A DNA stretch of 64,000 nucleotides from Escherichia coli. Its GTDB lineage: Bacteria > Pseudomonadota > Gammaproteobacteria > Enterobacterales > Enterobacteriaceae. The position numbers and the translations under genes are program-made. The stretch lies in NCBI RefSeq assembly GCF_003334765.1, contig NZ_QOWT01000003.1; one strand, 5' to 3'. Below the pieces are notes generated by a model. That model did not search any database and was not told the DNA's origin. It saw nothing but the letters and a program-made list of their open reading frames with translations. Positions 1 to 44,045 of this stretch are shown piece after piece. Position 1 is the first letter of the stretch; each line of letters starts with the position of its first letter.

Positions 1-332
1 ATATCCCCCATAACCCTCTCCTTAGCTTATACAGATATCATTGAGTGACCGGTGTTGAGAAATCCGGTGGTTTAGGGGGATAGAGCAACAATCGCACCAC
101 TCTTGCCAGGTTTGGCGGGAAATATAAAAAAATGTGAGGCGGCTCGAAACTTAAGGGCTTTTTGTGAATGAACTCACAGGTGCTAAATGAGAATTAAAAT
201 CACTCCTGAAAATTATTATTGCCAGCCCATTTATCAATTTTTCTCTTTTCTCAAAATCAGTGATTCCTTATCATTATGATAATGAGTGCCGGAAGGATTA
301 AATATTTGAACGCAATCGTTTAACTACGTTTT

Positions 333-1013: not shown

Positions 1014-1784
1014 GTGAAAAGTATAGTTGACCCATCGGCATTAGTCATTGATTTAGGTGCGCAGAAACGTCCCACTGTGATTTCTGTTGTTGGTGCTGGG
1101 GGGAAAACCAGCTTGCTTTTTTGGCTGGCAGAACTGCTCCAGGCTAGCGGCAGGCGTGTGTTAATCACGACGACGACACATATGTTTATGCCAACGTCTC
1201 ACTGGCCCGTGGTTTTCTGTCGTGATCCCGCCATGCTTCCTCATGCGTCTCTTACATCCCCCATTTCATTTTGTTTTCACAGCTGGAAAGCGAACCAGGG
1301 AAAAGTGCAGGGATTTACGCCAGAAGCGATTGATGCACTGGTGCAACGACCAGAGTGTGACGTAATTCTCATTGAAGCAGATGGCTCGCGTGGAATGCCG
1401 TTAAAAGCGCCTGATGAGCACGAACCTTGCATACCCAAAAGCAGTTGCTGCGTGATTGCTGTGATGGGAGGACATACTTTGGGCGCGAAAGTGAGCACAG
1501 AAAATGTCCATCGCTGGTCGCAGTTTGCTGATATTACCGGGTTAACACCTGATGCAACCTTGCAACTGAGCGATCTCGTTGCGCTGGTTCGCCACCCTCA
1601 GGGGGCGTTTAAAAACGTACCGCAAGGTTGTCGGCGAGTCTGGTTCATTAACCGTTTTTCTCAATGTGAGAATGCGATTGCACAAAGCGAGCTCCTTCAA
1701 CCGCTGCAACAACACGACGTAGAGGCAATCTGGCTGGGCGATATACAAGAACATCCTGCAATCGCGCGCAGATTTGTGAATTAG
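1014..1784 (+). CDS. yqeC: selenium-dependent molybdenum hydroxylase system protein YqeC (P-loop protein)
   Basis: 256-aa ORF with Walker A-like motif VVGAGGKTS; synteny with yqeB/mocA as in E. coli K-12. Confidence 0.88.
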   Translation: MKSIVDPSALVIDLGAQKRPTVISVVGAGGKTSLLFWLAELLQASGRRVLITTTTHMFMPTSHWPVVFCRDPAMLPHASLTSPISFCFHSWKANQGKVQGFTPEAIDALVQRPECDVILIEADGSRGMPLKAPDEHEPCIPKSSCCVIAVMGGHTLGAKVSTENVHRWSQFADITGLTPDATLQLSDLVALVRHPQGAFKNVPQGCRRVWFINRFSQCENAIAQSELLQPLQQHDVEAIWLGDIQEHPAIARRFVN

Positions 1785-1831: not shown

Positions 1832-3457
1832 ATGAATATTTTCACAGAGGCTGCAAAACTCGAAGAGCAAAATTGTCCGTTTGCTATGGCGCAAATTGTT
1901 GATAGCCGAGGCTCGACTCCCCGCCATTCTGCACAAATGTTAGTGCGCGCCGATGGTTCTATCGTCGGTACAATTGGTGGCGGAATGGTTGAGCGGAAGG
2001 TGATTGAAGAGTCGCTTCAGGCATTGCAGGAACGTAAGCCGCGATTATTCCATGGACGTATGGCTCGTAACGGTGCGGATGCTGTCGGGTCAGATTGTGG
2101 AGGTGCAATGTCAGTATTTATCAGCGTCCATGGTATGCGTCCACGTCTGGTGTTGATTGGCGCGGGGCATGTCAACCGGGCGATAGCCCAGAGTGCGGCG
2201 CTATTAGGATTTGATATTGCCGTTGCTGATATTTATCGCGAAAGCCTCAATCCTGAACTATTCCCACCATCAACCACGCTTCTCCATGCTGAGTCGTTTG
2301 GTGCGGCAGTGGAAGCACTGGATATTCGCCCTGATAATTTTGTCCTGATTGCCACGAATAATCAGGATCGTGAAGCCCTCGACAAACTCATTGAACAGCC
2401 CATTGCATGGTTGGGGTTGCTGGCAAGTCGTCGCAAGGTTCAGCTTTTCCTGCGTCAATTGCGTGAGAAAGGCGTGGCTGAAGAACATATTGCCCGTTTA
2501 CATGCGCCCGTTGGTTACAACATAGGTGCGGAAACGCCGCAGGAGATCGCCATCAGCGTGCTGGCAGAAATATTACAGGTGAAAAATAACGCGCCGGGTG
2601 GGCTGATGATGAAACCTTCTCATCCTTCCGGACACCAGCTGGTGGTGATTCGCGGTGCGGGAGATATCGCCAGTGGTGTGGCGCTACGTCTGTATCATGC
2701 GGGTTTTAAAGTGATCATGCTGGAAGTGGAAAAACCGACAGTGATTCGTTGTACCGTGGCGTTTGCCCAGGCCGTGTTCGATGGCGAAATGACGGTCGAA
2801 GGCGTCACTGCTCGCCTGGCAACCAGCTCTGCGGAAGCGATGAAACTTACCGAACGCGGATTCATTCCTGTGATGGTAGATCCCGCCTGTTCATTGCTTG
2901 ATGAACTGAAACCGCTTTGCGTGGTGGACGCTATTCTGGCGAAACAGAATTTGGGAACGCGGGCAGATATGGCACCAGTAACAATCGCGCTTGGGCCGGG
3001 CTTTACTGCTGGGAAGGATTGTCATGCGGTAATTGAAACAAATCGCGGGCACTGGCTCGGTCAGGTGATTTACTCTGGTTGTGCGCAGGAGAATACCGGT
3101 GTTCCTGGCAATATTATGGGGCATACCACCCGACGGGTGATCCGTGCTCCTGCTGCAGGCATTATGCGATCCAACGTGAAATTAGGCGATCTGGTGAAAG
3201 AGGGCGATGTGATTGCCTGGATTGGTGAGCATGAAATTAAAGCACCGTTGACGGGGATGGTGCGTGGCTTGTTGAACGACGGCCTGGCAGTGGTTGGTGG
3301 TTTTAAAATTGGTGATATCGATCCTCGTGGTGAAACCGCTGATTTCACCAGCGTTTCTGATAAAGCCCGGGCGATTGGCGGCGGCGTACTTGAGGCGTTA
3401 ATGATGTTGATGCATCAGGGCGTGAAAGCGACAAAAGAAGTGCTGGAAGTGGCTTAA
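1832..3457 (+). CDS. yqeB: XdhC/CoxI-family molybdenum hydroxylase accessory protein YqeB
   Basis: 541-aa ORF, length and synteny match K-12 YqeB; tandem XdhC-like domains inferred from sequence pattern. Confidence 0.88.
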   Translation: MNIFTEAAKLEEQNCPFAMAQIVDSRGSTPRHSAQMLVRADGSIVGTIGGGMVERKVIEESLQALQERKPRLFHGRMARNGADAVGSDCGGAMSVFISVHGMRPRLVLIGAGHVNRAIAQSAALLGFDIAVADIYRESLNPELFPPSTTLLHAESFGAAVEALDIRPDNFVLIATNNQDREALDKLIEQPIAWLGLLASRRKVQLFLRQLREKGVAEEHIARLHAPVGYNIGAETPQEIAISVLAEILQVKNNAPGGLMMKPSHPSGHQLVVIRGAGDIASGVALRLYHAGFKVIMLEVEKPTVIRCTVAFAQAVFDGEMTVEGVTARLATSSAEAMKLTERGFIPVMVDPACSLLDELKPLCVVDAILAKQNLGTRADMAPVTIALGPGFTAGKDCHAVIETNRGHWLGQVIYSGCAQENTGVPGNIMGHTTRRVIRAPAAGIMRSNVKLGDLVKEGDVIAWIGEHEIKAPLTGMVRGLLNDGLAVVGGFKIGDIDPRGETADFTSVSDKARAIGGGVLEALMMLMHQGVKATKEVLEVA

Positions 3458-3464
3458 ATGAAAA

Positions 3465-3492
3465 TGGCCGGATGGTATTACCCACCCGGCCT
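3465..3492. repeat. 28-bp GC-rich hairpin repeat, copy 1 (tggccggatggtattacccacccggcct)
   Basis: Exact 28-bp direct repeat of the copy at 3645..3672; internal imperfect inverted repeat ggccggatgg/ccacccggcc; lies just after the yqeB stop. Confidence 0.7.
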
Positions 3493-3516
3493 GAGACTGA
3501 TGACAAACGCCAAATT

Positions 3517-3617
3517 GCCTGATGCGCTACGCTTATCAGGCCTACAAGTGCATTGCAATCTATTGAATTTGCTATGTTTTGTAGGACGGATAAGGCGCTC
3601 GCGCCGCATCCGGCATC
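3517..3617. repeat. REP/BIME-like element (two inverted REP palindromic units)
   Basis: gcctgatgcgctacgcttatcaggcctac and gtaggacggataaggcgctcgcgccgcatccggcatc resemble E. coli REP units in opposite orientations, between convergent yqeB and yqeA. Confidence 0.65.
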
Positions 3618-3644
3618 AACAAAGCGCACTTACTTGACAATCTT

Positions 3645-3672
3645 TGGCCGGATGGTATTACCCACCCGGCCT
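3645..3672. repeat. 28-bp GC-rich hairpin repeat, copy 2
   Basis: Identical to 3465..3492; lies just after the yqeA stop (minus strand). Confidence 0.7.
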
Positions 3673-3677
3673 TTAAA

Positions 3678-6095: not shown

Positions 6096-7307
6096 TTACT
6101 CTGTTGCCAGCCAGCTTAACGGGATTGCAGCGTACATCGCGGCACAGGTCACCAGGTGAGATTTCCAGGTTTTTTCGTTAGGTGCATGCGCTTCAGGTTC
6201 TTTACCCGGGCCAAAGCCGATCACCGGAATGCCGTGACGGCCCATGATAGATACGCCGTTAGTTGAGAAGGTCCACTTATCAACAACCGGCGCTTTGCCA
6301 AACAGCCCTTCGTAGGCATTCACCAGTGCTTTAACGGTGAAGTGATCTTCTTCCACTTTCCAGGTCGGGAAGTAGCATTCGGTTGGGTAAACCAGGCCAG
6401 TCCAGGACGGACGGTCGTAGTTGTACATAGAAACAACCGCGTTAGCTTTCTGTACTGCAGGCAGGGCGCGGATTTCGTCCAGCGCGCCTTCCCAGGTTTC
6501 GCCCCAGGTCAGACGACGGTCGATTGAAACTGCGCAGCTGTCTGCTACAGCGCAACGGCTTGGGGATGTGAAGAAGATTTCAGAAACGGTGAGGGTGCCT
6601 TTGCCGAGGAATTCGTCATAACCCAGACGTTGGGAGAGTTCTTGTAATTCGCCAAGAATCGGACCCATTTTGAAAATGGCGTTATCACCGCGTTCTGGTG
6701 CAGAACCGTGGCAGCTAACACCCTGAACATCAATACGAATTTCCATACGACCGCGCTGACCACGGTATACCTGGCAGTCGGTTGGTTCGGTACTGACCAC
6801 AAATTCCGGGCGAATGCCGGATTGTTCAATAATGTACTGCCAGCACAGACCGTCGCAGTCTTCTTCCTGCACCGTACCGGTAACCAGCAGGGTATATTCA
6901 TCTTCCAGACCGAGGTCTTTAATGATTTTACCGGCATAAACCATAGAGGCCATGCCACCTTCCTGGTCGGAAGTACCGCGACCACCAATCAGTTCATCAG
7001 TTTCCATGCCTTCGTACGGATCGAAGTCCCAGTTTTTGATGTTGCCAATGCCGACGGTATCGATATGAGCGTCCATTGCCACCAGACGCGGGCCGTGGCC
7101 GATATAACCGAGAACGTTGCCCATCGGGTCGATTTCAACTTTATCGAAGCCGACTTTTTCCATCTCTTCTTTAATACGATGTACTACGCGTTTCTCGTCG
7201 CAGCTTTCACTGGGAATAGCAACCATGTCGCGCAGGAAGCGAGTCATATCCGCCTGGTAATCTTTTGCTTTTTCAAGAATCAGTTTGAATGGAATATTCT
7301 TAGCCAT
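6096..7307 (-). CDS. ygeY: M20-family peptidase/amidohydrolase YgeY
   Basis: 403-aa ORF; synteny and length match K-12 YgeY. Confidence 0.88.
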
Positions 7308-7364
7308 TATTTTTCTCCAGATTTTTTACTCCCCGTTTTGCAGGGAGCAGTTCCAATAGGGTGA

Positions 7365-8561
7365 TTAAGGTGCTACAGCGTGTTTGCCTTCCCAGACAAC
7401 TTCGCGGTAGTGCTTCACGTCGGTGTCGCCTTCAGTGCTGATAACCAGCACCACGGCATCTTTGTTCAGCGCCAGTTTTTCCATCAGGCTTTGACGTTGC
7501 GGGTGATAATGAACCGCTGCGAGAACGCCCAAACCGACAGCGCCGGATTCACCGGAGATGATGCGCGGGTCGTTGCCGTACGGATTACCCAGCACGCGCA
7601 TACCTAATGCGGCAACGCTGTCCTGGCAGGAGATGAATTGGGTGGCGCAGTTACGTAGGATTTCCCAGCCCAGCGGGTTAGGTTCGCCACAGGCCAGGCC
7701 TGCCATGATGGTGGCCATATCACCGCCAACGTTGACGATGTCGCCTTTGACGCCGGAGCGATAAATACAGTCAGCTTTGTCAGGTTCAACAATAATGCTG
7801 TGCAGATTTTGCGGGCTATAGACGTCGACCAGATAACCCAGCACACCACCGGCCATTGCTCCGACACCGGCTTGCAGCAGAACGTGCGTCGGGGTTACGC
7901 CCATTTCACGCATTTGCTCGACGGCTTCATCTGCCAGGGTTGCGTAGCCTTGCATGATCCAGGTTGGGATTTTGGTGTAACCTTCCCATGCCGTGTCCTG
8001 TACCACTTCCCAGCCGTGCTGCTGCGCGTGTTGCATGGTCAGGCGAACGGTATCGTCATAGTTCATATCCGTGACGATGCACTCGGCACCGAGGTTCAGA
8101 ATGGCGTCAACGCGTTCCTGAGCAGAACCTTTCGGCATGTAAATCACCGCATTCTGTCCGAGTTGCTGTGCTGCCCACGCCACACCGCGCCCGTGGTTGC
8201 CGTCGGTGGTGGTCGCGAAAGTCATTTTTTCGCCGATGGCATTTTTCAGGTGCTCAAATGACAGCGTTTCGATATCAAGATGATATTTTTCACACAATAA
8301 TTGAGCGATGGCGTACGCACCGCCAAGCATTTTGAAGGCGTTCAGACCGAATCGTTTTGATTCGTCTTTGACGAGAATTTTCTTCACACCAAAAAGGTTT
8401 GCGAGATCGTCCAGCGCACAAAGCGGTGTTGGGCGATAACCAGCTATTTTCTGGTGGAACTGGCGCGCCAGTTTGGCCTGGCTTTGCGAAAAGAGCGGTG
8501 ATGTTTCGCCGTTGAAAAATTTGTTATCGGCGATATCAATCTTCAATGAGAAAACGGACAT
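7365..8561 (-). CDS. ygeX: 2,3-diaminopropionate ammonia-lyase (PLP-dependent) YgeX/DpaL
   Basis: 398-aa ORF; synteny and length match K-12 YgeX. Confidence 0.9.
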   Translation of the reverse strand: MSVFSLKIDIADNKFFNGETSPLFSQSQAKLARQFHQKIAGYRPTPLCALDDLANLFGVKKILVKDESKRFGLNAFKMLGGAYAIAQLLCEKYHLDIETLSFEHLKNAIGEKMTFATTTDGNHGRGVAWAAQQLGQNAVIYMPKGSAQERVDAILNLGAECIVTDMNYDDTVRLTMQHAQQHGWEVVQDTAWEGYTKIPTWIMQGYATLADEAVEQMREMGVTPTHVLLQAGVGAMAGGVLGYLVDVYSPQNLHSIIVEPDKADCIYRSGVKGDIVNVGGDMATIMAGLACGEPNPLGWEILRNCATQFISCQDSVAALGMRVLGNPYGNDPRIISGESGAVGLGVLAAVHYHPQRQSLMEKLALNKDAVVLVISTEGDTDVKHYREVVWEGKHAVAP

Positions 8562-8618
8562 ATCCTATCCTTTTGGCCTCTGGAAATAGAGGGCCGACCA
8601 GCTGATCGGCCCGAGGGG

Positions 8619-9809
8619 TTATTTCACGCGTTCTTGCGCTTCTTTCAGCAGTTGCTCGAGCAGTGCACCTGGTTTGGCGTATTTACGGGACAGGATCATC
8701 GCGGCGATGATATAAGGCTTCCAGCTGGCTTCTTTGTAGGTAGCGATACGGTATTTTTCGAATACGCCTTCAGTCACTTCACCTTCTTTACAGGATACGC
8801 CGCTGATATCAGCTGGCAGGCAGTGCATGTACAGGGCTTCGCCATCACGGGTCAGTTCCATCATCTCTTCAGTACAATGCCAGTCTTTGTGTTGCGCGTT
8901 CTGTGCCAGACACTGTTTTTCCAGTGCTTTTAAGCCTTCGTGATCGTTCGCACGCAGCAATTCAGTACGCTCTTCCATCACTTTGTAAGGTGCCCATGAC
9001 TTCGGATAAACGATGTCTGCGTCTTTGAAGGCTTCTTCCATGCTGGTGACCTGACGGAAGCTACCACCGGAGGCTTTAGCATTGTTTTTCGCCACTTCAA
9101 CCACATCCGGGATCAGGTCGTAGCCTTCCGGATGGGCCAGGGTGACATCCATACCGAAGCGAGTCATCAGACCGATGATGCCTTGTGGTACAGAGAGCGG
9201 TTTGCCATAGCTTGGAGAGTAGGCCCAGGTCATGGCGATTTTTTTACCTTTCAGGTTTTCCAGTGAACCAAAGTGTTCACGTAACCACGCGAGGTCAGCC
9301 ATTGACTGAGTCGGGTGGTCAATATCGCATTGCAGGTTCACTAAAGCCGGACGCTGTGGCAGTACACCCTGCTTGTAACCGTCATCAAGTGCAGCGCCAA
9401 CTTCACGCATATAGGCGTTGCCTGCGCCCAGATACATATCGTCGCGAATACCAATAGCGTCGGCGCAGAAGGAGATCATATTGGCGGTTTCACGCACGGT
9501 TTCGCCGTGAGCGATTTGTGATTTGCCTTCGTCGAGATCTTGTTGTGCAAGGCCGAGCAGGTTAAGCGCGGAAGCATAAGAGAAGCGGGTACGGGTGGAG
9601 TTGTCGCGGAATACGGAAATACCTAATCCACTATTAAAGACTTTGGTTGAGATGTTTTCAGCACGCAGTGCTTTTAATGCTGCGGCAACGTCCAGTACTT
9701 GTTTCAGTTCATCTGGCGTCTGTTCCCACGTTAACAAAAAATCTTTCTCGTGAAGGTGAGAGGTCAGCGAATTGATATCCTTAATCAGCTCATTAACAGT
9801 TTTCATCAT
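8619..9809 (-). CDS. ygeW: YgeW, transcarbamylase-family protein of uncertain substrate
   Basis: 396-aa ORF; aspartate/ornithine carbamoyltransferase fold family by sequence pattern; first gene of a co-directional five-gene cluster. Confidence 0.9.
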   Translation of the reverse strand: MMKTVNELIKDINSLTSHLHEKDFLLTWEQTPDELKQVLDVAAALKALRAENISTKVFNSGLGISVFRDNSTRTRFSYASALNLLGLAQQDLDEGKSQIAHGETVRETANMISFCADAIGIRDDMYLGAGNAYMREVGAALDDGYKQGVLPQRPALVNLQCDIDHPTQSMADLAWLREHFGSLENLKGKKIAMTWAYSPSYGKPLSVPQGIIGLMTRFGMDVTLAHPEGYDLIPDVVEVAKNNAKASGGSFRQVTSMEEAFKDADIVYPKSWAPYKVMEERTELLRANDHEGLKALEKQCLAQNAQHKDWHCTEEMMELTRDGEALYMHCLPADISGVSCKEGEVTEGVFEKYRIATYKEASWKPYIIAAMILSRKYAKPGALLEQLLKEAQERVK

Positions 9810-10284
9810 AAAGTCCCGGTAGTGGAATGACAGGCAAAGTGGTTTATTTCACTGTGACTTGCCAAAGTGATTGGTGTTTTCACAGCTATACCTGGGACTA
9901 ACAATAAGTGTGCCAGAATTATCCGCGCGGCTGCAAAAGACTAATTTGACGGATAATGTGTGGGGTTGATCACAAATTGATGCCAGCTTCTGGTTGTTTG
10001 TAAAATACGAAAACGTTTGGCTTTTTTTATCGCGTTATTTATTTGCTGCTAAGTATCAGAAATAAGATAAAGGGGCAGGCTATCTCTCTTCAGTTTGATA
10101 AACTCACCGCCGTAATTCTCATATTGATATAGAAATGTGATATCTCTTCCATAATTTCATTAGAAAATGATAAAAATCTTATGTTTTTATCAAAGCCAAT
10201 TTCGCCTGAGTTAATATCATCATGATCTGTGAACCATCAACGTCTTCAATGATCGACTTTTAAGTAAGTCTGGAAGGTAAAGCT

Positions 10285-12063
10285 ATGGAGCTTGCTACTA
10301 CGCAGTCAGTATTGATGCAAATTCAACCGACAATTCAGCGTTTTGCCAGAATGCTTGCCAGCGTTTTGCAGCTTGAGGTTGAGATCGTTGATGAAAACTT
10401 GTGTCGCGTTGCCGGAACGGGCGCGTATGGGAAGTTTCTTGGTCGCCAGTTGAGCGGCAACTCACGCCTGCTCCGCCACGTCCTGGAAACGAAAACTGAA
10501 AAAGTTGTGACACAGTCTCGCTTCGATCCCCTTTGCGAAGGTTGCGATAGTAAAGAAAATTGCCGCGAAAAAGCATTTCTGGGTACGCCTGTCATTTTAC
10601 AGGATCGTTGTGTTGGGGTGATAAGTTTGATTGCCGTTACCCACGAGCAACAAGAGCATATCAGTGATAATTTACGCGAATTTTCTGATTATGTTCGCCA
10701 TATATCCACCATTTTTGTTTCGAAACTTCTGGAGGATCAGGGGCCAGGAGATAACATCAGTAAAATATTTGCGACCATGATCGATAATATGGATCAGGGC
10801 GTATTAGTTGTAGATGATGAAAATCGGGTTCAGTTTGTTAATCAGACTGCCTTAAAAACACTTGGTGTTGTGCAAAATAATATTATTGGGAAACCTATCC
10901 GTTTCAGACCATTAACATTTGAGAGTAATTTTACCCATGGACATATGCAGCATATTGTTTCATGGGACGATAAAAGTGAATTAATCATTGGTCAATTGCA
11001 TAACATTCAGGGCCGACAATTATTTTTAATGGCGTTTCACCAATCGCATACCAGTTTTTCTGTAGCAAATGCACCTGATGAACCGCATATTGAACAATTG
11101 GTTGGCGAGTGCCGTGTTATGCGGCAATTAAAACGACTCATTAGCCGTATTGCACCCAGCCCATCCAGCGTTATGGTGGTTGGTGAAAGCGGCACGGGTA
11201 AAGAAGTCGTCGCCCGTGCAATCCATAAGTTGAGCGGAAGACGGAATAAACCCTTTATTGCTATCAACTGTGCCGCGATTCCGGAGCAGCTTCTGGAGAG
11301 CGAACTGTTCGGTTATGTTAAAGGTGCATTTACTGGCGCTTCTGCCAACGGTAAAACAGGGTTGATTCAGGCGGCGAATACGGGCACGCTGTTTCTCGAT
11401 GAAATAGGTGATATGCCATTAATGTTGCAGGCTAAATTACTGCGCGCTATTGAGGCACGTGAAATTCTGCCGATTGGTGCCAGTAGCCCAATACAAGTCG
11501 ACATTCGCATCATTTCTGCAACTAATCAGAATTTGGCCCAGTTCATTGCCGAAGGTAAATTCCGCGAAGATCTCTTCTACCGACTTAATGTTATCCCGAT
11601 AACTCTGCCACCGCTGCGTGAACGTCAGGAAGATATTGAACTATTGGTGCATTACTTTTTACATCTGCATACCCGTCGTCTGGGATCGGTTTATCCTGGC
11701 ATTGCTCCCGATGTCGTCGAAATATTGCGTAAGCATCGTTGGCCCGGAAACCTGCGCGAGTTAAGCAATTTGATGGAATATCTGGTTAACGTGGTTCCTT
11801 CAGGTGAAGTTATCGACAGCACGCTATTGCCGCCAAATCTGCTGAATAATGGCACAACGGAGCAAAGTGATGTAACAGAGGTCAGTGAGGCGCACCTGTC
11901 ACTCGATGATGCGGGCGGCACGGCGCTGGAGGAGATGGAAAAGCAAATGATCCGCGAGGCGCTTTCACGTCATAACAGCAAGAAGCAAGTTGCTGATGAA
12001 CTGGGCATCGGCATTGCTACGCTCTATCGCAAGATTAAGAAATATGAGTTGTTAAACACATAA
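10285..12063 (+). CDS. ygeV: sigma54-dependent transcriptional activator YgeV
   Basis: 592-aa ORF; AAA+ sigma54-interaction domain (GESGTGKE Walker A, ESELFGY motif) and C-terminal HTH; N-terminal sensory domain. Confidence 0.93.
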   Translation: MELATTQSVLMQIQPTIQRFARMLASVLQLEVEIVDENLCRVAGTGAYGKFLGRQLSGNSRLLRHVLETKTEKVVTQSRFDPLCEGCDSKENCREKAFLGTPVILQDRCVGVISLIAVTHEQQEHISDNLREFSDYVRHISTIFVSKLLEDQGPGDNISKIFATMIDNMDQGVLVVDDENRVQFVNQTALKTLGVVQNNIIGKPIRFRPLTFESNFTHGHMQHIVSWDDKSELIIGQLHNIQGRQLFLMAFHQSHTSFSVANAPDEPHIEQLVGECRVMRQLKRLISRIAPSPSSVMVVGESGTGKEVVARAIHKLSGRRNKPFIAINCAAIPEQLLESELFGYVKGAFTGASANGKTGLIQAANTGTLFLDEIGDMPLMLQAKLLRAIEAREILPIGASSPIQVDIRIISATNQNLAQFIAEGKFREDLFYRLNVIPITLPPLRERQEDIELLVHYFLHLHTRRLGSVYPGIAPDVVEILRKHRWPGNLRELSNLMEYLVNVVPSGEVIDSTLLPPNLLNNGTTEQSDVTEVSEAHLSLDDAGGTALEEMEKQMIREALSRHNSKKQVADELGIGIATLYRKIKKYELLNT

Positions 12064-12073
12064 CCTCAGTGAA

Positions 12074-12104
12074 TCCGGCCTGAATTCAGGCCGGATATCC
12101 TTTT
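12074..12104. terminator. palindromic hairpin between convergent ygeV and xdhC (likely bidirectional terminator)
   Basis: Perfect inverted repeat tccggcctgaa/ttcaggccgga followed by tatcctttt on the plus strand; sits between the ygeV stop and xdhC stop. Confidence 0.55.
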
Positions 12105-12582
12105 ACTTCGTTTTCTCGCAATCCAGAACTGTATTTACAATCATCTGATACCCCGTGCAGCGACAAAGATTTCCCGCCAGTCCGCGACGAATTTCCGTAA
12201 TGGTTAATGGCTTCTCGCGTGGTTTCGCCAGCATTGCCGTGGTAGCCATAATCAGGCCAGGCGTACAAAACCCGCACTGCACTGCGCCGGATTTCGCATA
12301 AGCCTGCTGAACATGAGAAAGTTTTCCGCCTTTCGCTTCACCTTCCAGCGTGCGGATCTCTTTTCCTTCAGCCCAGGCGGCAAGGTATAAGCAACTGTCT
12401 ATTGCTGTGCCGTCGACCAACACCGTACAGGCACCACATTCACCCACGCAGCACCCTTGTTTGACACTTAGCAGTCCTTGTTCGCGGAGTAATTCCGAGA
12501 GCGGCGTGCCTGGTGCGGCGTGAAGCTGAAAAGGCATCCCGTTAATGGTGCATTCGATGGTAATTGTTTCGCTGTGATTCAT
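12103..12582 (-). CDS. xdhC: xanthine dehydrogenase iron-sulfur subunit
   Basis: 159-aa ORF with 2Fe-2S cysteine clusters ([16 protein letters not shown]); overlaps the xdhB stop by 4 nt. Confidence 0.93.
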
Positions 12583-13457
12583 TGCAATTTTCCCCCCGCC
12601 GCGGCGACGGCTTCGCTAATCACTTTTTTGGTCATCGTCTGGATGAGATGCAGACGAAACTCTTTACTGGCCCGCCATGAAGAACGCGGGGCGACATCTT
12701 GCAGGACAGATTCGCTGATAGCTTCCAGCGTTTGCAGGTTTAATGGCGCATTTTGTGCAGTCTGTTCGGCATGTTGGCAGCGAATCGGCGTTGGCGCGGC
12801 AACACCAAATGCCAGGCGTAATTCGCTGAAATTGCCGTTATCCAGTCGGCAATGTGCGGCGCAGCCAATCGTTGAAATATCCATTGCGTCGCGCATGGCA
12901 TATTTAAAATGCGCGCTGCCCGCGTGTTCTTTCGGCTGTGGCGGAAAATGAAAGGCGACGAGGATTTCGTCATGCTCAAGAGACACTTTGCCCGGCCCGG
13001 TGTGAAAGCCATTAATCGGGACGAAACGAACACCGCGCGGGGAGTGGATCTCCAGTTTCGCGTCATAAATTAGCGTTGGCGTGGCAGAATCTGCGCTGGT
13101 GGCACCGTTGCAAATATTTCCACCGTAGGTAGCGACGTTACGGATCTGCGGTCCAGCAATGGACGTGGCCGCAGCACATAACGCCGGGAGATGACGTTGA
13201 GTTATAGGATCTTCTATTAGCTGGGTAAATGTCGTTGCAGAGCCGATACGTAGCGAGCCATCTTCCGCCAGCGTAATTCCCCGCAGCTCCGCCAGATTAT
13301 GAATATCAACAATATGGCGATAACGGTCATTGTGATGGTGGAGCTGAATCAGTACGTCAGTGCCACCGGCGAGCAGTTTGGCCTGCGGGTTGTCAGCCAG
13401 CAGGTTGATGGCATCGGCAAGGGTTGCTGCGCGATGGTAAGAAGCAAAATCAAACAT
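12579..13457 (-). CDS. xdhB: xanthine dehydrogenase FAD-binding subunit
   Basis: 292-aa ORF; synteny xdhA-xdhB-xdhC. Confidence 0.93.
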
Positions 13458-13467
13458 GATGTTATCC

Positions 13468-15726
13468 TCAAATCAATCCTGCCAGATGGAACTCTTCATA
13501 TAACCGTTTTGGCGTCAGCGGCAGTGTATTGATTGCAACACCGGTAGCCATCTTCACCGCGTTACGAATAGCAGCGGCAACAGGAATTATTGGTGGCTCA
13601 CCCAGTGACTTATGTCCGTATGCGGATTGCGGCTCATTGATTTCGACGAACGCGCTTTCCAGTTGTGGCAGATCCGGCATGGTCGGCATTTTGTAATCCA
13701 GCAGATTGGGGTTACGGACCACGCCGCTTTTAGCATCGATGATCATCTCTTCAAATAGCGCCCAGCCAATGCCCATTCCCATTCCGCCGTGTACCTGACC
13801 TTCTGCCAGCAGTGGATTAAGAATATGCCCTGAATCATGAACGTTGAGGATGCGGTTGATGGTGACTTTGCACAGCGCAATATCGACCGTCAGATCAACA
13901 AAGGTACAGCCAAACGCCGGTGGGTTAGTGGTGGTTTTGATGGAGCTTTCAGCAGAGAGCTGCCCGCCGCGTTCAGGGTGGTAGAAAGCGTCCATCGCCA
14001 AATCTTTTAACGACATTAACGGCTCTTCCGGTCGTTCAACCAGCACGATATGGCCTTTTATCAGGGTCAGATTCATCGCTGACTGATGTAGCATGACTGC
14101 GGCGTGAGCGATGATTTTCTCTTTTAATAATAGTGCCGCACTGCGCAGCGCAGGCGCGGCAACATAGCTCTGGCGTGAGGCAAATGCGCCGGGATCGAAC
14201 GGCGTAACGTCGGTATCTTGAGTTGAAATAACGCGAACGTCGCTGACCGGAACCCCCACGGTTTCTGCCACCATTTGCGAGAAGACGGTGTCGGCACCCT
14301 GACCGATTTCCGTCGCGCCGCTTTGCACGTTGATGGTTCCATCCTGATTCATCAGAAGGCGCGCGCCTGCTATTTCTACGCCGACAGGCCAGGTGTTAGA
14401 GGTGTAGCTAAAACAGGCGACGCCAACGCCGCGGCGCAAATTGCCTTGCTGGTTCTGGCATTCTGCACGGCGTTTTTCCCATTCAAAGATTTTCCGGCCT
14501 TTTTCAAGACACTCCGGCAACCCTGCGCTGTAAATACGTTTGCCCGTGAGCGGATTAGCATCTCCTTCGCGGGCGGCGTTGCGTAAACGAATTTCAACAG
14601 GATCAATACCTAACGCTGTCGCGGCGTCATCAAGCATAGACTCAACGGCAAATACGACTTGTGGCGCGCCATAACCACGCATCGCACCAGCCGAGGGGAG
14701 GTTGGTATAGCAGGTCTTTGAACTGTAAGCGTAGGCACAACGAGGATAAAGGTAAGCGACTTTATTCCCCCCCGCAGAAGCGATGGAGTGCCCGTGAGAT
14801 GCATAAGCGCCGGTGTTAGACAGAACATCCAGACTATAACCTTTCAATGTTCCGTCGCGGTTCACGCCCATTTGCCCGTCAATGGTAAAAGCGTGGCGGG
14901 TACGGGTTGCGAGGAAACACTCTTCACGGCTAAGGGAAACTTTCACCGGAATGCCGCCAAGCTTGCTGGTCAGGAATGCCGCCATTGGCTCTTCCAGTAC
15001 ATCCTGTTTATTACCAAAACCGCCACCGACAAATGGTTTGATGACTCGTACGCATGACCAGGGAATATCCAGCGCCTGACCAACCACGCGGCGAACAATG
15101 TGCGGGATCTGGGTGCTGGAAACGATGGTAATTCGCGAGTCATCCTCCATCCACGCCAGCGATGTTACGCTTTCCATGTGACAATGTTGAATAACGGGGG
15201 TCTGATAGTGCCCCTGTACCTGGTAGTCGGCGGCATCGATTGTTTGTTGGACATTACCCGTCGACATCGTGCTTTGTTTCAGTAAATTGCCACCGTTATG
15301 GATTGGTGCAGCGTCTTCTGCCAGCGCCGCTTCTGGCGTGGTGATAACGGGTAATTCTTGCCACTCAATGCTGACCAATTGCGCCGCTTTTTCTGCCGTG
15401 AGTTCATCGCGGGCCACGACGATGGCAACGGCGTCACCATGATGACGAACATGGCGAGTTAGCAGTGCGCGATCGGCGGTATCGCGCTTGTTTTCGTCAA
15501 GTGTCCAGGCATGCCCAGCTGTAGCGAATGGAATATCAGGCACATCTTCCCAGGTAAAAATCGCCAGTACGCCCGGCAAACTTCTGGCTTGTTCATCATT
15601 AATACTTACGGCATAACCATGTGCGATAGGGCTACGTACATATTTCGCATAACACATGCCCGCCATAACATAATCGTCAGTATATCGTGCCCGCCCGGTG
15701 ACCTTAGCAATGGCATCGACGCGCAT
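13468..15726 (-). CDS. xdhA: xanthine dehydrogenase molybdenum-binding subunit
   Basis: ORF track extends to 15765, but the internal ATG giving MRVDAIAKVTG yields the 752-aa length recalled for XdhA. Confidence 0.92.
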   Translation of the reverse strand: MRVDAIAKVTGRARYTDDYVMAGMCYAKYVRSPIAHGYAVSINDEQARSLPGVLAIFTWEDVPDIPFATAGHAWTLDENKRDTADRALLTRHVRHHGDAVAIVVARDELTAEKAAQLVSIEWQELPVITTPEAALAEDAAPIHNGGNLLKQSTMSTGNVQQTIDAADYQVQGHYQTPVIQHCHMESVTSLAWMEDDSRITIVSSTQIPHIVRRVVGQALDIPWSCVRVIKPFVGGGFGNKQDVLEEPMAAFLTSKLGGIPVKVSLSREECFLATRTRHAFTIDGQMGVNRDGTLKGYSLDVLSNTGAYASHGHSIASAGGNKVAYLYPRCAYAYSSKTCYTNLPSAGAMRGYGAPQVVFAVESMLDDAATALGIDPVEIRLRNAAREGDANPLTGKRIYSAGLPECLEKGRKIFEWEKRRAECQNQQGNLRRGVGVACFSYTSNTWPVGVEIAGARLLMNQDGTINVQSGATEIGQGADTVFSQMVAETVGVPVSDVRVISTQDTDVTPFDPGAFASRQSYVAAPALRSAALLLKEKIIAHAAVMLHQSAMNLTLIKGHIVLVERPEEPLMSLKDLAMDAFYHPERGGQLSAESSIKTTTNPPAFGCTFVDLTVDIALCKVTINRILNVHDSGHILNPLLAEGQVHGGMGMGIGWALFEEMIIDAKSGVVRNPNLLDYKMPTMPDLPQLESAFVEINEPQSAYGHKSLGEPPIIPVAAAIRNAVKMATGVAINTLPLTPKRLYEEFHLAGLI

Positions 15727-15820
15727 GCATGATTCACCCGTAGCGGTTGCTTCCCGCGCTTCCATAGAAATCCCCTCGATTTGAACATTTGGTTCTTATG
15801 GCAAAGATTTAGTCTAAGCA

Positions 15821-15837
15821 GGCAAGATTTACGCCAG
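15821..15837 (-). promoter_or_regulatory. candidate sigma54 (-24/-12) promoter for xdhABC
   Basis: Minus strand reads cTGGCGTaaatcTTGCc: GG and GC separated by 10 nt as in the TGGCAC-N5-TTGC consensus; about 95 nt upstream of the xdhA start; ygeV (sigma54 activator) is adjacent. Confidence 0.5.
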
Positions 15838-16179
15838 AAACGACGATAAGCGTTAGGGGAGGTAGGAAGTGTGATGACGTTAAAAAAACACAGATATGAT
15901 ACGAAACAGGACTCTGAATAGGGGCAGTGATACGTATCAATATGAGTGGCGATAAAATCAATGTGATAAATTGGGATTATTACGCATCAGGATGGGAAAT
16001 AGGGTAAAAAGTCAGGAAGTTCGATACCTCTACAGCGAATATTTTGCTGATGATACTTCCCTTTGCCAAATGAAATTAACCTCTTTCTCTATTACCACGT
16101 TTTTCCAGAAGCAAGAGATTGGGTATCAAGAGGCTGGCTGCTATGATAAGGCGTCTTGTTTTTTAAGCGAGGAAAGATT

Positions 16180-16935
16180 TTGAGTGCGGGACGCCTGAAT
16201 AAAAAATCTCTGGGTATCGTGATGTTGTTATCGGTTGGACTGCTTTTGGCGGGCTGTTCGGGTAGCAAATCATCCGATACAGGAACGTATTCCGGCTCCG
16301 TTTACACCGTGAAACGGGGGGATACGCTATATCGTATTTCGCGCACCACGGGAACCAGCGTAAAAGAACTGGCGCGACTGAACGGCATTTCCCCCCCTTA
16401 CACCATTGAAGTTGGTCAGAAACTAAAACTGGGTGGGGCGAAAAGTAGCAGTATTACACGTAAATCAACCGCCAAATCAACGACCAAAACCGCATCGGTT
16501 ACACCGTCATCAGCGGTACCGAAATCATCCTGGCCGCCAGTAGGGCAACGTTGTTGGTTATGGCCAACGACAGGGAAAGTTATCATGCCGTATTCGACAG
16601 CAGATGGCGGCAATAAAGGGATTGATATCTCAGCTCCACGGGGTACACCTATTTACGCCGCGGGTGCAGGAAAGGTGGTGTATGTGGGCAACCAGCTGCG
16701 TGGCTACGGTAATCTCATCATGATTAAACACAGTGAAGATTACATTACGGCTTACGCCCATAATGACACGATGCTGGTAAATAATGGGCAAAGCGTGAAG
16801 GCTGGGCAAAAAATCGCCACTATGGGGAGCACGGATGCGGCATCTGTTCGCCTGCATTTCCAGATTCGTTACCGTGCAACGGCAATTGATCCGCTACGTT
16901 ACTTGCCGCCTCAGGGCAGCAAGCCAAAATGCTGA
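16180..16935 (+). CDS. ygeR: LysM-domain M23 peptidase-family lipoprotein YgeR
   Basis: ORF track starts at 16156; a TTG at 16180 preceded by GAGGAAA gives the 251-aa form; lipobox LLAGC; LysM-like segment and C-terminal M23-like region. Confidence 0.85.
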   Translation: MSAGRLNKKSLGIVMLLSVGLLLAGCSGSKSSDTGTYSGSVYTVKRGDTLYRISRTTGTSVKELARLNGISPPYTIEVGQKLKLGGAKSSSITRKSTAKSTTKTASVTPSSAVPKSSWPPVGQRCWLWPTTGKVIMPYSTADGGNKGIDISAPRGTPIYAAGAGKVVYVGNQLRGYGNLIMIKHSEDYITAYAHNDTMLVNNGQSVKAGQKIATMGSTDAASVRLHFQIRYRATAIDPLRYLPPQGSKPKC

Positions 16936-16968
16936 TGGCGAATTAATCAGCAGTCAGCAGCGTGGCAC

Positions 16969-16996
16969 TTGCTAAGGAGAGCGTAAGGTTTATAAT
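16969..16996 (+). promoter_or_regulatory. glyU promoter (-35 TTGCTA, 16-nt spacer, -10 TATAAT)
   Basis: Near-consensus sigma70 hexamers placed so that transcription would start about 10 nt before the tRNA 5' end. Confidence 0.6.
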
Positions 16997-17013
16997 GCCT
17001 TACGCATCTCGAA

Positions 17014-17087
17014 GCGGGCGTAGTTCAATGGTAGAACGAGAGCTTCCCAAGCTCTATACGAGGGTTCGATTCCCTTCGCCCGCTCCA
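17014..17087 (+). tRNA. glyU: tRNA-Gly (anticodon CCC)
   Basis: 74-nt sequence GCGGGCGTAGTTCAATGGTAGAACGAGAGCTTCCCAAGCTC...CGCCCGCTCCA with 7-bp acceptor stem, CCC anticodon in loop CUUCCCAAG, T-loop GGTTCGATTCC, encoded CCA end. Confidence 0.95.
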
Positions 17088-17200
17088 ATTTATCTTCGCC
17101 GTAATACTTCCCCATTTTGTTGTAAATAAAAAGCGTTTACGCAATGCAATCCTTTTGTAACAACCCAGGTAAAACACCTTATTTTCAAGTTGTTAAATAA

Positions 17201-18853
17201 GTGGTTATCTACGCTTTTAACAAACGATTGATGGAATATTTTATGAAAGGGAAATCTGCATTAACTCTTCTGCTCGCTGGTATATTTTCGTGCGGCACAT
17301 GCCAGGCGACAGGGGCAGAAGTGACGAGTGAATCTGTATTTAACATTCTTAATTCCACGGGGGCAGCAACAGATAAAAGTTATTTATCGTTAAATCCAGA
17401 TAAGTATCCTAATTATCGTCTTCTGATTCACTCAGCCAAATTACAAAATGAAATAAAGAGCCACTATACCAAAGACGAAATTCAAGGATTGCTAACATTA
17501 ACAGAAAACACACGAAAGTTAACGTTGACGGAGAAACCCTGGGGAACGTTTATTCTTGCTTCTACTTTCGAAGATGACAAAACAGCGGCAGAAACCCACT
17601 ATGATGCTGTCTGGTTGAGGGATAGTTTATGGGGCTATATGGCATTAGTATCAGATCAGGGAAATAGTGTAGCCGCAAAAAAGGTTCTGCTCACCCTGTG
17701 GGATTATATGTCTACGCCCGACCAGATTAAGCGGATGCAGGACGTCATTAGCAACCCAAAACGACTGGATGGAATTCCCGTGCAAATGAATGCTGTGCAT
17801 ATCCGATTTGACAGCAACTCCCCCGTGATGGCAGATGTGCAGGAAGAAGGCAAGCCGCAGCTGTGGAACCATAAACAAAATGATGCTTTAGGTCTTTACC
17901 TTGATCTCCTTATACAAGCAATCAACACTGGTACTATTAACGCTGAAGATTGGCAAAAAGGTGACCGATTAAAGTCGGTTGCGCTGCTGATTGCTTATCT
18001 GGATAAAGCCAATTTCTATGTTATGGAAGATTCCTGAGCATGGGAAGAAGATGCCCGATTAAACACATCTTCCGTTGCACTGGTGACCTCTGGACTGGAA
18101 CGTTTGTCAAACCTACTCTCGAAGAAAGACTCTGTTTTTGTCTCTGATTTACTACGCGAAGCTAAAGTCAATGAACTGGATGAAACTCTTTCAACAACGA
18201 GGTTGAACCACCTCATAGATAAAGGTTATGAAAGAATAACGTTACAGCTTGATTTAGGGGGAGAATCCCCAGGTTATCTGGAAAAAGATAAACATTACAG
18301 AGAAGCCGATGCGGCTTTACTTAATGTTATTTATCCTACAAATCTTTCAAAGATAAACACCAGAAGAAAAGAGCAAGTTCTAAAAATAGTTAAAAAACTA
18401 GCAGGTCCGTATGGTATAAAAAGATACGAGAAGGATAATTATCAGTCGGCAAATTTTTGGTTCAATGATATTAAAACCGATACCGATCAAAATTCGCATG
18501 CAAAAAGAGAAAAGAGCTTCATTCCATCAACAGAAGCAGAATGGTTTTTTGACTCATGGTATGCAAAATCAGCAGCAATTGTTTATAAAGAATCAAGAAA
18601 AGAAGAGTATTTGAATGACTCAGTACAATTTATGAATAGATCATTGGCCCAAATAACAGGCGAGAATATGATTGGTGCAAATGGCAGGAGCGTACCAGAA
18701 ATGGCACTTCCCGAAAGCTATAACTATATCCACAAGTCGGGAACTTTGCATGAAGCGCCAAGCCCTATCATTCCGCTAAATTGGTCGAAAGCTTCAATGA
18801 CTCTCATGTTGAAAGAGATGTCCAACCTTATCAATGATGAGGGAATTAAATAG
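17201..18853 (+). pseudogene. ygeQ: glycoside hydrolase family 15-like lipoprotein, interrupted by in-frame TGA (ygeQ-like)
   Basis: Two ORFs (17201..18037, 18083..18853) in the same frame separated by a single TGA at 18035..18037; GH15-like WEE...NTSS motif immediately after the stop; N-terminal signal/lipobox-like segment. Confidence 0.75.
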
Positions 18854-18984
18854 TTTTCATAATGAGTTACAGCACAACGTTGGGTATTGACTGAGCAAGA
18901 TGAACGACAAGGACAACGACATCAGCCTTATGAGGAGCAAGAAAATGAAAGCAAATTCGAAAACGATCAGAAGGATGAAAGTTA

Positions 18985-19932
18985 ATGTTCGGTCTGAGGA
19001 CAGTAAATCGAAACACTCATACGTTTGAAACCACTTTTCAAAATTGGAAAGAAAATGGCGAAGATGTTGCATTATTAATGCCCGAATTTAGTGCTAAATG
19101 GCTACCGATAGCAGAAGAGAGTGGCAGCTGGTCTGGATGGGTATTGCTTGGAGAAATATTTCCCTTAATTTCATCTGAGCTCGCTGGGATGGCTTTAATG
19201 CCAGAAACGGAAAGGTTAATAGGGGAATGCCTCAGTTTATCCAGTTCCCCGTTAAATCTAAAGCATCCTGAACTAAAATATAATCGTTTGCGCGTAGGTA
19301 AAGTATTTGATGGAGTATTGAGCCCTGCTCAACCACTAATAAGAATATGGACAGGGGAATTGAATCTTTGGTTAGATAAAGTCACAGTCTGCCAATACGG
19401 AAACGCTCCAGCGTTAGACAAAAAATCGTTATATTGCTCCATTCATTTTGTAATTGGATTTAGTAAAACATGTTACAGAAGTCTTGTTGATATTGAAGTT
19501 GGTGATGTTTTATTAATCTCAAATAATTTGGCTTATGCGGTTGTTTATAATACAAAAATTTGTGATTTAATTTATCCAGAGGAGTTAAAAATGGCTGATC
19601 ATTTTGAGTACGAGGAAGATTTTGAAACAGATGATTTTGATATCAAAAAAAACGAGAGTGAGATTTATGATGAAAATGACGATCAGATGATTAATAGTTT
19701 TGAAGACTTGCCTGTAAAAATTGAGTTTGTTCTTGGTAAGAAAATAATGAATCTATATGAAATAGACGAACTCTGTGCAAAAAGAATAATATCTCTGCTT
19801 TCTGAATCTGAGAAAAATATAGAAATACGTGTAAATGGCGCGCTAACTGGCTATGGCGAACTTGTTGAAGTGGATGATAAATTGGGCGTAGAGATTCATT
19901 CTTGGTTATCAGGGCATAATAATGTCAAATAG
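18985..19932 (+). CDS. epaO: T3SS cytoplasmic sorting platform/C-ring protein (SctQ; SpaO/YscQ family)
   Basis: 315 aa; C-terminal SpoA-like region (VKIEFVLGKK...EIRVNGALTGYGELVEVDDKLGVEI); acidic linker; immediately precedes the sctRSTU homologs. Confidence 0.8.
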   Translation: MFGLRTVNRNTHTFETTFQNWKENGEDVALLMPEFSAKWLPIAEESGSWSGWVLLGEIFPLISSELAGMALMPETERLIGECLSLSSSPLNLKHPELKYNRLRVGKVFDGVLSPAQPLIRIWTGELNLWLDKVTVCQYGNAPALDKKSLYCSIHFVIGFSKTCYRSLVDIEVGDVLLISNNLAYAVVYNTKICDLIYPEELKMADHFEYEEDFETDDFDIKKNESEIYDENDDQMINSFEDLPVKIEFVLGKKIMNLYEIDELCAKRIISLLSESEKNIEIRVNGALTGYGELVEVDDKLGVEIHSWLSGHNNVK

Positions 19933-40494: not shown

Positions 40495-40635
40495 ATACCT
40501 GTAGATCATCATAATCCATATCATGGTTATGAAATAATCCATATTAATTATCAATTAATGAACTTTATGAATTTTATCTGCTGTAAAATTAGGTGGTTAA
40601 TAATAATCTCAATAATTCAACTTAATTTGAAAATT

Positions 40636-40700
40636 GGAATATCCATCACATAACGACATGTCGCAGCAATTTAATCCATATTTATGCTGTTTCCGACCTG
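40636..40700 (+). promoter_or_regulatory. araE promoter control region (candidate CRP site and tandem AraC half-sites)
   Basis: tggaatatccatcaca resembles a CRP half-consensus; agcaatttaatccata and tgctgtttccgacctga resemble araI1/araI2-type direct repeats; about 60-130 nt upstream of the araE ATG. Confidence 0.5.
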
Positions 40701-40762
40701 ACACCTGCGTGAGTTGTTCACGTATTTTTTCACTATGTCTTACTCTCTGCTGGCAGGAAAAA

Positions 40763-42181
40763 ATGGTTACTATCAATACGGAATCTGCTTTAACGCCACG
40801 TTCTTTGCGGGATACGCGGCGTATGAATATGTTTGTTTCGGTAGCTGCTGCGGTCGCAGGATTGTTATTTGGTCTTGATATCGGCGTAATCGCCGGAGCG
40901 TTGCCGTTCATTACCGATCACTTTGTGCTGACCAGTCGTTTGCAGGAATGGGTGGTTAGTAGCATGATGCTCGGTGCAGCAATTGGTGCGCTGTTTAATG
41001 GTTGGCTGTCGTTCCGCCTGGGGCGTAAATACAGCCTGATGGCGGGGGCCATCCTGTTTGTACTCGGTTCTATAGGGTCCGCTTTTGCGACCAGCGTAGA
41101 GATGTTAATCGCCGCTCGTGTGGTGCTGGGCATTGCTGTCGGGATCGCGTCTTACACCGCTCCTCTGTATCTTTCTGAAATGGCAAGTGAAAACGTTCGC
41201 GGTAAGATGATCAGTATGTACCAGTTGATGGTCACACTCGGCATCGTGCTGGCGTTTTTATCCGATACAGCGTTCAGTTATAGCGGTAACTGGCGCGCAA
41301 TGTTGGGGGTTCTTGCTTTACCAGCAGTTCTGCTGATTATTCTGGTAGTCTTCCTGCCAAATAGCCCGCGCTGGCTGGCGGAAAAGGGGCGTCATATTGA
41401 GGCGGAAGAAGTATTGCGTATGCTGCGCGATACGTCGGAAAAAGCGCGAGAAGAACTCAACGAAATTCGTGAAAGCCTGAAGTTAAAACAGGGCGGTTGG
41501 GCACTGTTTAAGATCAACCGTAACGTCCGTCGTGCTGTGTTTCTCGGTATGTTGTTGCAGGCGATGCAGCAGTTTACCGGTATGAACATCATCATGTACT
41601 ACGCGCCGCGTATCTTCAAAATGGCGGGCTTTACGACCACAGAACAACAGATGATTGCGACTCTGGTCGTAGGGCTGACCTTTATGTTCGCCACCTTTAT
41701 TGCGGTGTTTACGGTAGATAAAGCAGGGCGTAAACCGGCTCTGAAAATTGGTTTCAGCGTGATGGCGTTAGGCACTCTGGTGCTGGGCTATTGCCTGATG
41801 CAGTTTGATAACGGTACGGCTTCCAGTGGCTTGTCCTGGCTCTCTGTTGGCATGACGATGATGTGTATTGCCGGTTATGCGATGAGCGCCGCGCCAGTGG
41901 TGTGGATCCTGTGCTCTGAAATTCAGCCGCTGAAATGCCGCGATTTCGGTATTACCTGTTCGACCACCACGAACTGGGTGTCGAATATGATTATCGGCGC
42001 GACCTTTCTGACACTGCTTGATAGCATTGGCGCTGCCGGTACGTTCTGGCTCTACACTGCGCTGAACATTGCGTTTGTGGGCATTACTTTCTGGCTCATT
42101 CCGGAAACCAAAAATGTCACGCTGGAACATATCGAACGCAAACTGATGGCAGGCGAGAAGTTGAGAAATATCGGCGTCTGA
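40763..42181 (+). CDS. araE: arabinose:H+ symporter (MFS sugar porter)
   Basis: ORF track starts at 40634; the internal start [10 protein letters not shown] gives the 472-aa AraE length; sugar-porter MFS motifs. Confidence 0.93.
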
Positions 42182-42187
42182 TTTCAC

Positions 42188-42220
42188 GGGCCGGATGTGC
42201 TGTACATCCGGCCCTTTTTT
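42188..42220 (+). terminator. rho-independent terminator after araE
   Basis: Hairpin gggccggatgtgctgtacatccggccc followed by tttttt. Confidence 0.8.
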
Positions 42221-42309
42221 CGTTAATAGAGATTGGGCACTTGGCCGTTGAGGCGTTTGTCTCGTTCCTTATTCAGCCTTGTTGCGGTAACACACATCAG
42301 GAGAGAGGA

Positions 42310-43924: not shown

Positions 43925-44045
43925 TAGCGCTCTCTCGCAATCCGGTAATCCATATCATTTTTGCATAGACTCGACATAAATCGATATTTTTTATTCTTTT
44001 TATGATGTGGCGTAATCATAAAAAAGCACTTATCTGGAGTTTGTT

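Follow-up and report, generated by a model that had tools for sequence, protein, structure and literature searches.

Ju et al. are said to have described in 2019 many hairpins between convergent genes that terminate transcription without Rho and without U-tracts. The intrinsic terminators of E. coli combine a stable, GC-rich stem-loop in the 3' UTR with a U-tract of about 7-8 nt, and the RNA ends 7-9 nt past the stem. Another kind of gene-end hairpin was reported by Dar and Sorek in 2018 (PMC6061677), who found that Rho-dependent mRNAs end right after stable stem-loops without U-tracts, including stem-loops located within downstream coding regions, and held PNPase and RNase II responsible for trimming the RNAs to these ends. 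For hairpins between convergent genes, Wang et al. (2022 preprint, 10.1101/2022.10.23.513370) described termination by head-on and trailing collisions, a model that works best for highly expressed pairs.

Here we analyse two perfect palindromes located between convergent gene pairs of E. coli, ygeV/xdhC (site 1) and lplT/tas (site 2). According to our analysis they probably act as RNA hairpins at the 3' ends of convergent mRNAs, site 1 in both directions and site 2 in one only.

Two palindromes between convergent stop codons

The DNA analysed is a 64,000-nt stretch of an E. coli chromosome (referred to as the window), which lies in reverse orientation with respect to MG1655 and is identical to it at both palindrome sites; the identity is 100% over positions 7071..18379 and 99.95% over 26584..62945. 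Offsets taken from BLAST alignments can be off by one base because of a 1-nt indel elsewhere, and MG1655 coordinates were therefore converted using the stop codons as anchors (3003968 = 12103; 2972637 = 50308). Between the two aligned segments MG1655 contains nothing but IS2H, whereas positions 18380..26583 of the window hold 8.2 kb of type III secretion (ETT2) genes, several with frameshifts; the strain is therefore K-12-like, but not K-12.

The preliminary description of this DNA reported perfect inverted repeats centred between the convergent stop codons at both junctions. Our analysis found both of them, under gene names that match the RefSeq annotation, and revealed that each extends to arms of 12 nt: tccggcctgaa/ttcaggccgga at 12074..12095 is the inner part of the site-1 palindrome ATCCGGCCTGAATTCAGGCCGGAT, and aacgccggtt/aaccggcgtt at 50282..50303 is the inner part of the site-2 palindrome (Table 1). 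At junction 1 the stop codons of ygeV (12061-12063, + strand) and xdhC (12103-12105, - strand) are separated by 39 nt, with the midpoint at 12083 and the centre of the palindrome at 12084.5. At junction 2 the stop codons of lplT (50274-50276, + strand) and tas (50308-50310, - strand) are separated by 31 nt, with the midpoint at 50292 and the centre of the palindrome at 50292.5. Both centres thus fall at most 1.5 nt from the midpoint of the flanking stop codons.

Either strand of site 1 is predicted to fold into a 10-bp stem with a 4-nt loop (-18.8 kcal/mol), and the predicted RNA hairpins reach -20.6 kcal/mol on the + strand and -21.0 kcal/mol on the - strand. For site 2 the predicted fold is a stem of 10-11 bp with a 4-nt loop on both strands (-16.5 to -17.2 kcal/mol). 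The z-scores of the hairpins of the two sites range from -3.1 to -4.5.

The window contains four perfect inverted repeats whose arms measure 12 nt or more and whose loop does not exceed 10 nt, vs 0.025 +/- 0.16 expected from 40 dinucleotide-preserving shuffles of the same sequence. All four sit just past gene ends, and such repeats are therefore the usual gene-end signature in this window; the remaining two lie downstream of ygeG and of yqeG, and the one at yqeG matches a mapped 3' end.

Several other repeats were noted in the window. The spacer between yqeB (+) and arcC (-) at 3458..3677 contains two identical, directly repeated copies of a 28-nt hairpin unit TGGCCGGATGGTATTACCCACCCGGCCT (3465-3492 and 3645-3672), which flank two REP-like units; this arrangement looks like an insertion of a REP pair accompanied by duplication of a terminator hairpin. 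In the divergent ygeW/ygeV spacer, where a published RpoN gSELEX peak is also located, an AT-rich perfect inverted repeat TGATAAAAA-N7-TTTTTATCA (10168..10192) may be a regulator site. The divergent lysA/lysR promoter region contains the perfect inverted repeat TTTTTATGAT-N8-ATCATAAAAA (43997..44024), which could be a LysR-type operator.

Table 1. Genes, hairpins, mapped mRNA 3' ends and bicyclomycin-sensitive regions at the two junctions (window coordinates)
Feature	Position	Strand	Source
ygeV CDS (sigma-54-dependent regulator), left partner at junction 1	10285..12063	+	ORF list, RefSeq annotation
xdhC (xdhABC) mRNA 3'-end cluster, dominant 12070	12066..12073	-	PMC10687069 Supplementary Data 2
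Site-1 perfect palindrome ATCCGGCCTGAATTCAGGCCGGAT, 12+12 nt, no spacer	12073..12096	either	sequence, folding
ygeV-side tail AUCCUUUU; mapped ygeV 3' end at 12104	12097..12104	+	terminator scan, published 3'-end map
xdhC CDS, right partner at junction 1	12103..12582	-	ORF list, RefSeq annotation
Weak bicyclomycin-sensitive region, antisense to xdhC; MG1655 3003812 (minus)	12259	+	PMC7815308 Supplementary file 2
lplT CDS (last gene of aas-lplT), left partner at junction 2	49083..50276	+	ORF list, RefSeq
Bicyclomycin-sensitive (Rho) region, antisense to lplT; MG1655 2973171 (plus)	49774	-	PMC7815308 Supplementary file 2
tas mRNA 3' ends	50235..50238	-	Adams et al. Term-seq (PMC7815308 Supplementary file 1); PMC10687069
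Second hairpin, within last 11 codons of lplT; bounds tas mRNA	50241..50273	-	folding, sequence
Site-2 palindrome TTAACGCCGGTT-TT-AACCGGCGTTAA, 12+12 nt, 2-nt spacer	50280..50305	either	sequence, folding
lplT mRNA 3'-end cluster, dominant 50312	50305..50313	+	PMC10687069 Supplementary Data 3, LB RNAtag-seq
tas CDS, right partner at junction 2	50308..51348	-	ORF list, RefSeq annotation

Mapped mRNA 3' ends and the probable action of Rho

Published 3' ends are available for all four genes, in part from Bar et al. (PMC10687069), who re-analysed the term-seq data of Dar and Sorek and added their own LB RNAtag-seq data. The mapped ends lie 3-8 nt past hairpins (ygeV 12104, xdhC 12070, lplT 50312, tas 50235-50238). 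For ygeV, the anatomy of the site-1 hairpin and the position of the 3' end mark it as a canonical intrinsic terminator. The tail AUCCUUUU has 5 U among the 8 nt directly after the stem, and site 1 was flagged by the terminator scan on the + strand only. The primary ygeV 3' end (MG1655 3003967, minus strand; window 12104) coincides with the last U of this tail, 8 nt past the stem and within the xdhC stop codon, with a signal of 0.97 and significance in 3/3 replicates (Dar and Sorek term-seq, PMC10687069 Supplementary Data 2).

On the other strand, the tail UCACUGAG has no U-tract (2/8 U), and the primary xdhC 3' end (MG1655 3004001, plus strand; window 12070, - strand) maps 3 nt past the site-1 stem, in a cluster at MG1655 3003998-3004005 that comprises few reads (signal 0.64, significant in 2/3 replicates). 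The ygeV and xdhC transcripts, ending at 12104 (+) and 12070 (-), overlap by 35 nt over one common hairpin. Site 1 is a two-way 3'-end marker, with the xdhC end arising either by termination or by trimming.

At site 2 the terminator scan made no call on either strand. The lplT-side tail UCUUAUGG is weak in U (4/8), and the primary lplT 3' end (MG1655 2972633, minus strand; window 50312) maps 7 nt past the stem, after the weak U-tract tail UCUUAUG; in LB RNAtag-seq this end has few reads, with a signal of 0.63 and significance in 2/3 replicates. The tas-side tail AUAUUAAU is A-rich, with 4 U in its first 8 nt, and no tas mRNA end is mapped at the site-2 palindrome: tas reads through. Its 3' ends (MG1655 2972707, 2972709 and 2972710, plus strand) are found ~45 nt beyond the palindrome, 3-6 nt past a second hairpin (50241..50273) embedded in the lplT coding sequence. 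This hairpin has a perfect 9-bp core (ACGGCGCUG/CAGCGCCGU, 50244..50270) and a predicted stability of -18.9 kcal/mol on the tas strand; PMC10687069 Supplementary Data 3 depicts its fold as well. The position of the tas end agrees in three data sets (Adams Term-seq, Dar and Sorek term-seq and LB RNAtag-seq), and its signal reaches 0.96-0.98 (TRS on the Dar and Sorek term-seq and LB RNAtag-seq data). The tas and lplT ends are staggered over the two hairpins, which leaves the two mRNAs with ~78 nt of complementary 3' ends.

The lysA/galR junction has the same layout as tas/lplT. Stable hairpins at 45239..45278 and 45317..45356 lie inside both coding ends and flank a convergent junction of 6 nt, and the published galR 3' end (MG1655 2977706, window ~45239) coincides with the stem base of the hairpin within lysA. 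The window thus has more than one case of a hairpin embedded in a convergent neighbour.

These positions bear on the proposal of the preliminary description that both repeats are shared bidirectional terminators. For site 1 the proposal stands as a statement about 3'-end formation, with both ends mapped, and for tas at site 2 it does not hold, because tas ends elsewhere. Transcript 3' ends well beyond the hairpin, which that description had named as the observation that would speak against it, were found in the tas direction only, ~45 nt past site 2. Its remark that a clear T-run is present only on the ygeV side agrees with the U counts after the stem, which are 5 for ygeV, 2 for xdhC, 4 for lplT and 4 for tas, the last in an A-rich context.

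Bicyclomycin data (PMC7815308) indicate where Rho may act on these strands. The sensitive region on the tas strand, located ~460 nt past the tas 3' end, has a Rho score of 7.6 (p = 1e-17), although such scores are indirect because bicyclomycin also unleashes antisense transcription; the downstream/upstream reads change from 16/146 to 199/239 upon addition of the drug. Since this strand is bicyclomycin-sensitive further downstream, it appears to be Rho, not the palindrome, that stops tas transcription. The sensitive region on the ygeV strand has a weak Rho score (3.06, from low read counts), which hints at a leak at the ygeV terminator. PMC7815308 lists no Rho region past site 1 on the strand of xdhC; low expression in LB may be the explanation. 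All four genes are absent from the SMRT-Cappable-seq supplements.

On the reading that we favour, both palindromes would work as RNA, not as DNA, by forming stable GC-rich hairpins that end convergent mRNAs. In the case of ygeV, the hairpin followed by AUCCUUUU would cause Rho-independent release at the last U. The polymerase that transcribes xdhABC would pass the site-1 hairpin and stop further on in antisense ygeV, owing to Rho or to a clash with an oncoming polymerase, and 3'-5' exonucleases would then trim the transcript to the hairpin, which would shield the mRNA. In the case of lplT, site 2 would bound the aas-lplT mRNA through its weak U-tract, by inefficient intrinsic termination, by protection, or by both. 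The tas transcript would cross site 2, because its tail there is A-rich, continue into antisense lplT, be stopped by Rho, and be trimmed, presumably by the exonucleases PNPase and RNase II, to the hairpin embedded in lplT, because enzymes that start at the 3' end would reach this stable hairpin first. Stopping by Rho followed by trimming would be the best-supported account for both the xdhC and the tas directions; for tas it is backed by the bicyclomycin data, and for xdhC we infer it.

A different account would treat both elements as collision-driven bidirectional terminators (Ju et al. 2019; Wang et al. 2022), in which the hairpin pauses polymerases arriving from either side and collisions release them, with no need for a U-tract or for Rho. 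Site 1 has features that such a mechanism calls for: a convergent gene pair, ends that overlap by 35 nt on one hairpin, and one side without a U-tract. However, the model does best with highly expressed pairs, and the ygeV, xdhABC and lplT signals are weak in the mapped conditions; moreover, the tas mRNA ends past the site-2 palindrome, on a strand that is bicyclomycin-sensitive. We therefore regard collisions as the main rival explanation of the two elements, but an unlikely one.

It is also conceivable, if improbable, that the 78-nt and 35-nt overlaps couple the convergent partners, either through RNase III acting on 3'-3' duplexes or through collisions programmed by the hairpins. If so, the palindromes would be regulatory elements and not passive gene ends.

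Conservation and the case for an RNA element

The site-1 palindrome is present at one locus per genome in 5277/5426 E. coli genomes, and its 39-nt query matches with at least 99% identity in 4598/5292 matching records. Likewise, the site-2 palindrome is present at one locus per genome in 5370/5426 genomes, with at least 99% identity in 5233/5370. These copy numbers come from a search with a 39-nt query at E <= 10, in which two places per genome correspond to both strands of one palindrome. In strains that are ~97% identical overall the stems are unchanged and the flanks vary.

A few strains carry rearrangements close to these sites. In E. coli WL297 (record 1339..1500) the homology to the window stops beside the site-2 palindrome, at ~50312, and lplT is replaced: next to tas lie another hairpin (CGCCTGGTG-CAAAA-CACCAGGCG) and a DUF4139 gene. 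In E. coli 31B22CPO057 (record 1..93) an IS1 end truncates the left arm of site 2 (at ~50283) and splits lplT from tas. In E. coli CP61_Sichuan, a pig isolate, IS5 cuts ygeV into two pseudogene fragments and leaves the palindrome and xdhC intact; we considered this insertion as a disruption of the palindrome and rejected it, as it lies within ygeV itself. Outside the chromosome, the 20-nt core of site 1 CCGGCCTGAATTCAGGCCGG matches a 4115-bp plasmid-like record (NZ_JCAPUO010000003.1) at 3390..3409, and the site-1 search returned 32 plasmid places in total.

Orthologous junctions in relatives were gathered by searches for XdhC and LplT homologues combined with contig look-ups. A contig scan with YgeV returned only paralogous sigma-54 activators (33-50% identity) and no orthologous locus, and Klebsiella aerogenes, where no convergent ygeV follows xdhC, is uninformative on the junction. 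A stable hairpin is present at 7/7 orthologous xdhC/ygeV junctions (z-scores from -1.9 to -7.9) and its sequence differs; these hairpins are too divergent for column alignment and were compared by inspection. The Pseudocitrobacter junction retains the 24-nt core and extends the stem to 16 bp, that of Klebsiella indica retains GGCCTGAATTCAGGCC within an outer stem that is different but compensating, and Citrobacter amalonaticus, Yokenella, Atlantibacter and Buttiauxella possess unrelated hairpins. In Atlantibacter the U-tract is on the xdhC side, and its position is not conserved among the relatives. At the lplT/tas junction Citrobacter rodentium has REP units, Salmonella has another hairpin, and Enterobacter cloacae has two hairpins, one of them flanked by an A-run and a T-run. 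The hairpin embedded in lplT is present in Salmonella and C. rodentium and is lost in E. cloacae. This pattern across relatives fits selection on RNA structure at gene ends, not on a protein-binding DNA motif.

The same data bear on the idea that the palindromes are sites recognised at the DNA level, such as an operator of a dimeric regulator (e.g. YgeV), a recombination or cruciform site, or a decayed REP-like repeat. Perfect dyad symmetry is what one would expect of such sites, GGCCGGAT/ATCCGGCC of site 1 recurs in REP-like hairpins at other places in the window, the lplT/tas junction of C. rodentium is filled by REP units, and in one strain an IS1 end adjoins the site-2 palindrome. Nevertheless, we consider this idea very improbable: both palindromes are confined to a single locus in E. 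coli, they are located between stop codons, far from promoters, relatives that conserve YgeV have unrelated hairpins in place of this sequence, and RNA 3' ends map at the bases of the stems. A search of Rfam with both sites yielded nothing above the gathering threshold. As both palindromes are single-copy, we discarded the idea of a REP or another repeated element, and a protein-binding site was likewise rejected, as the RpoN gSELEX peak reported near ygeV is in the ygeV/ygeW divergent spacer, away from the convergent junction. That the palindromes arose by chance and do nothing, an idea for which only their short length speaks, can practically be dismissed, given four observed repeats vs ~0.025 expected, near invariance over thousands of genomes with variable flanks, a hairpin kept at 7/7 orthologous xdhC/ygeV junctions, and 3' ends that map at the palindromes.

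Relationship to known gene-end hairpins

The importance of these two junctions beyond careful annotation is small, and the 3' ends at both of them are already in published tables. They illustrate that a symmetric hairpin between convergent genes need not be a two-way terminator, that the use of a hairpin is governed by the tails flanking it and by which hairpin is the most downstream one, and that 3'-end hairpins can hide in the coding sequence of the neighbour (tas in lplT, galR in lysA). The persistence, at the xdhC/ygeV junction of relatives, of a hairpin whose sequence and U-tract side change agrees with the published idea of easy switching between Rho-dependent and Rho-independent ends.

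With REP/BIME elements the palindromes share an imperfect resemblance to the GGCCGGAT motif, and REP units do occur at the lplT/tas junction of C. rodentium and at the yqeB/arcC junction of the window. REP units are defined by many copies with a consensus, whereas both palindromes have one locus per genome, are shorter than a REP unit and are perfectly symmetric.

The overlapping bidirectional terminators of Ju, Li and Liu (2019) and Wang et al. (2022) are characterised by one hairpin with the two mRNA ends flanking it. Site 1 has this arrangement, with its single hairpin and 35-nt mRNA overlap, although ygeV and xdhC are weakly expressed. Site 2 lacks it, as its ends are staggered over two hairpins with a 78-nt overlap.

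Compared with intrinsic terminators of E. coli, both sites provide the stable GC-rich stem-loop on both strands (-18.8 kcal/mol for site 1 and -16.5 kcal/mol for site 2), placed in a 3' UTR. The ygeV side adds a U-run and an end 8 nt past the stem, and the lplT side a weak U-rich tail and an end 7 nt past the stem. The xdhC and tas directions differ in that they lack a U-tract at these sites, the xdhC end being only 3 nt off the stem and the tas ends lying elsewhere.

It is in these two directions that the resemblance to the protective stem-loops of Dar and Sorek (PMC6061677) is found, as stable hairpins without U-tracts occur just before precise ends, 3 nt away for xdhC and 3-6 nt away for tas. 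For tas the likeness extends to an end within the coding sequence of the neighbour (lplT) and to a bicyclomycin-sensitive region downstream on the same strand, while xdhC departs from the class in that no Rho signal is recorded on its strand. The elements at both junctions are thus known kinds of gene-end hairpin, namely an intrinsic terminator or a protective stem-loop at a Rho-dependent end.
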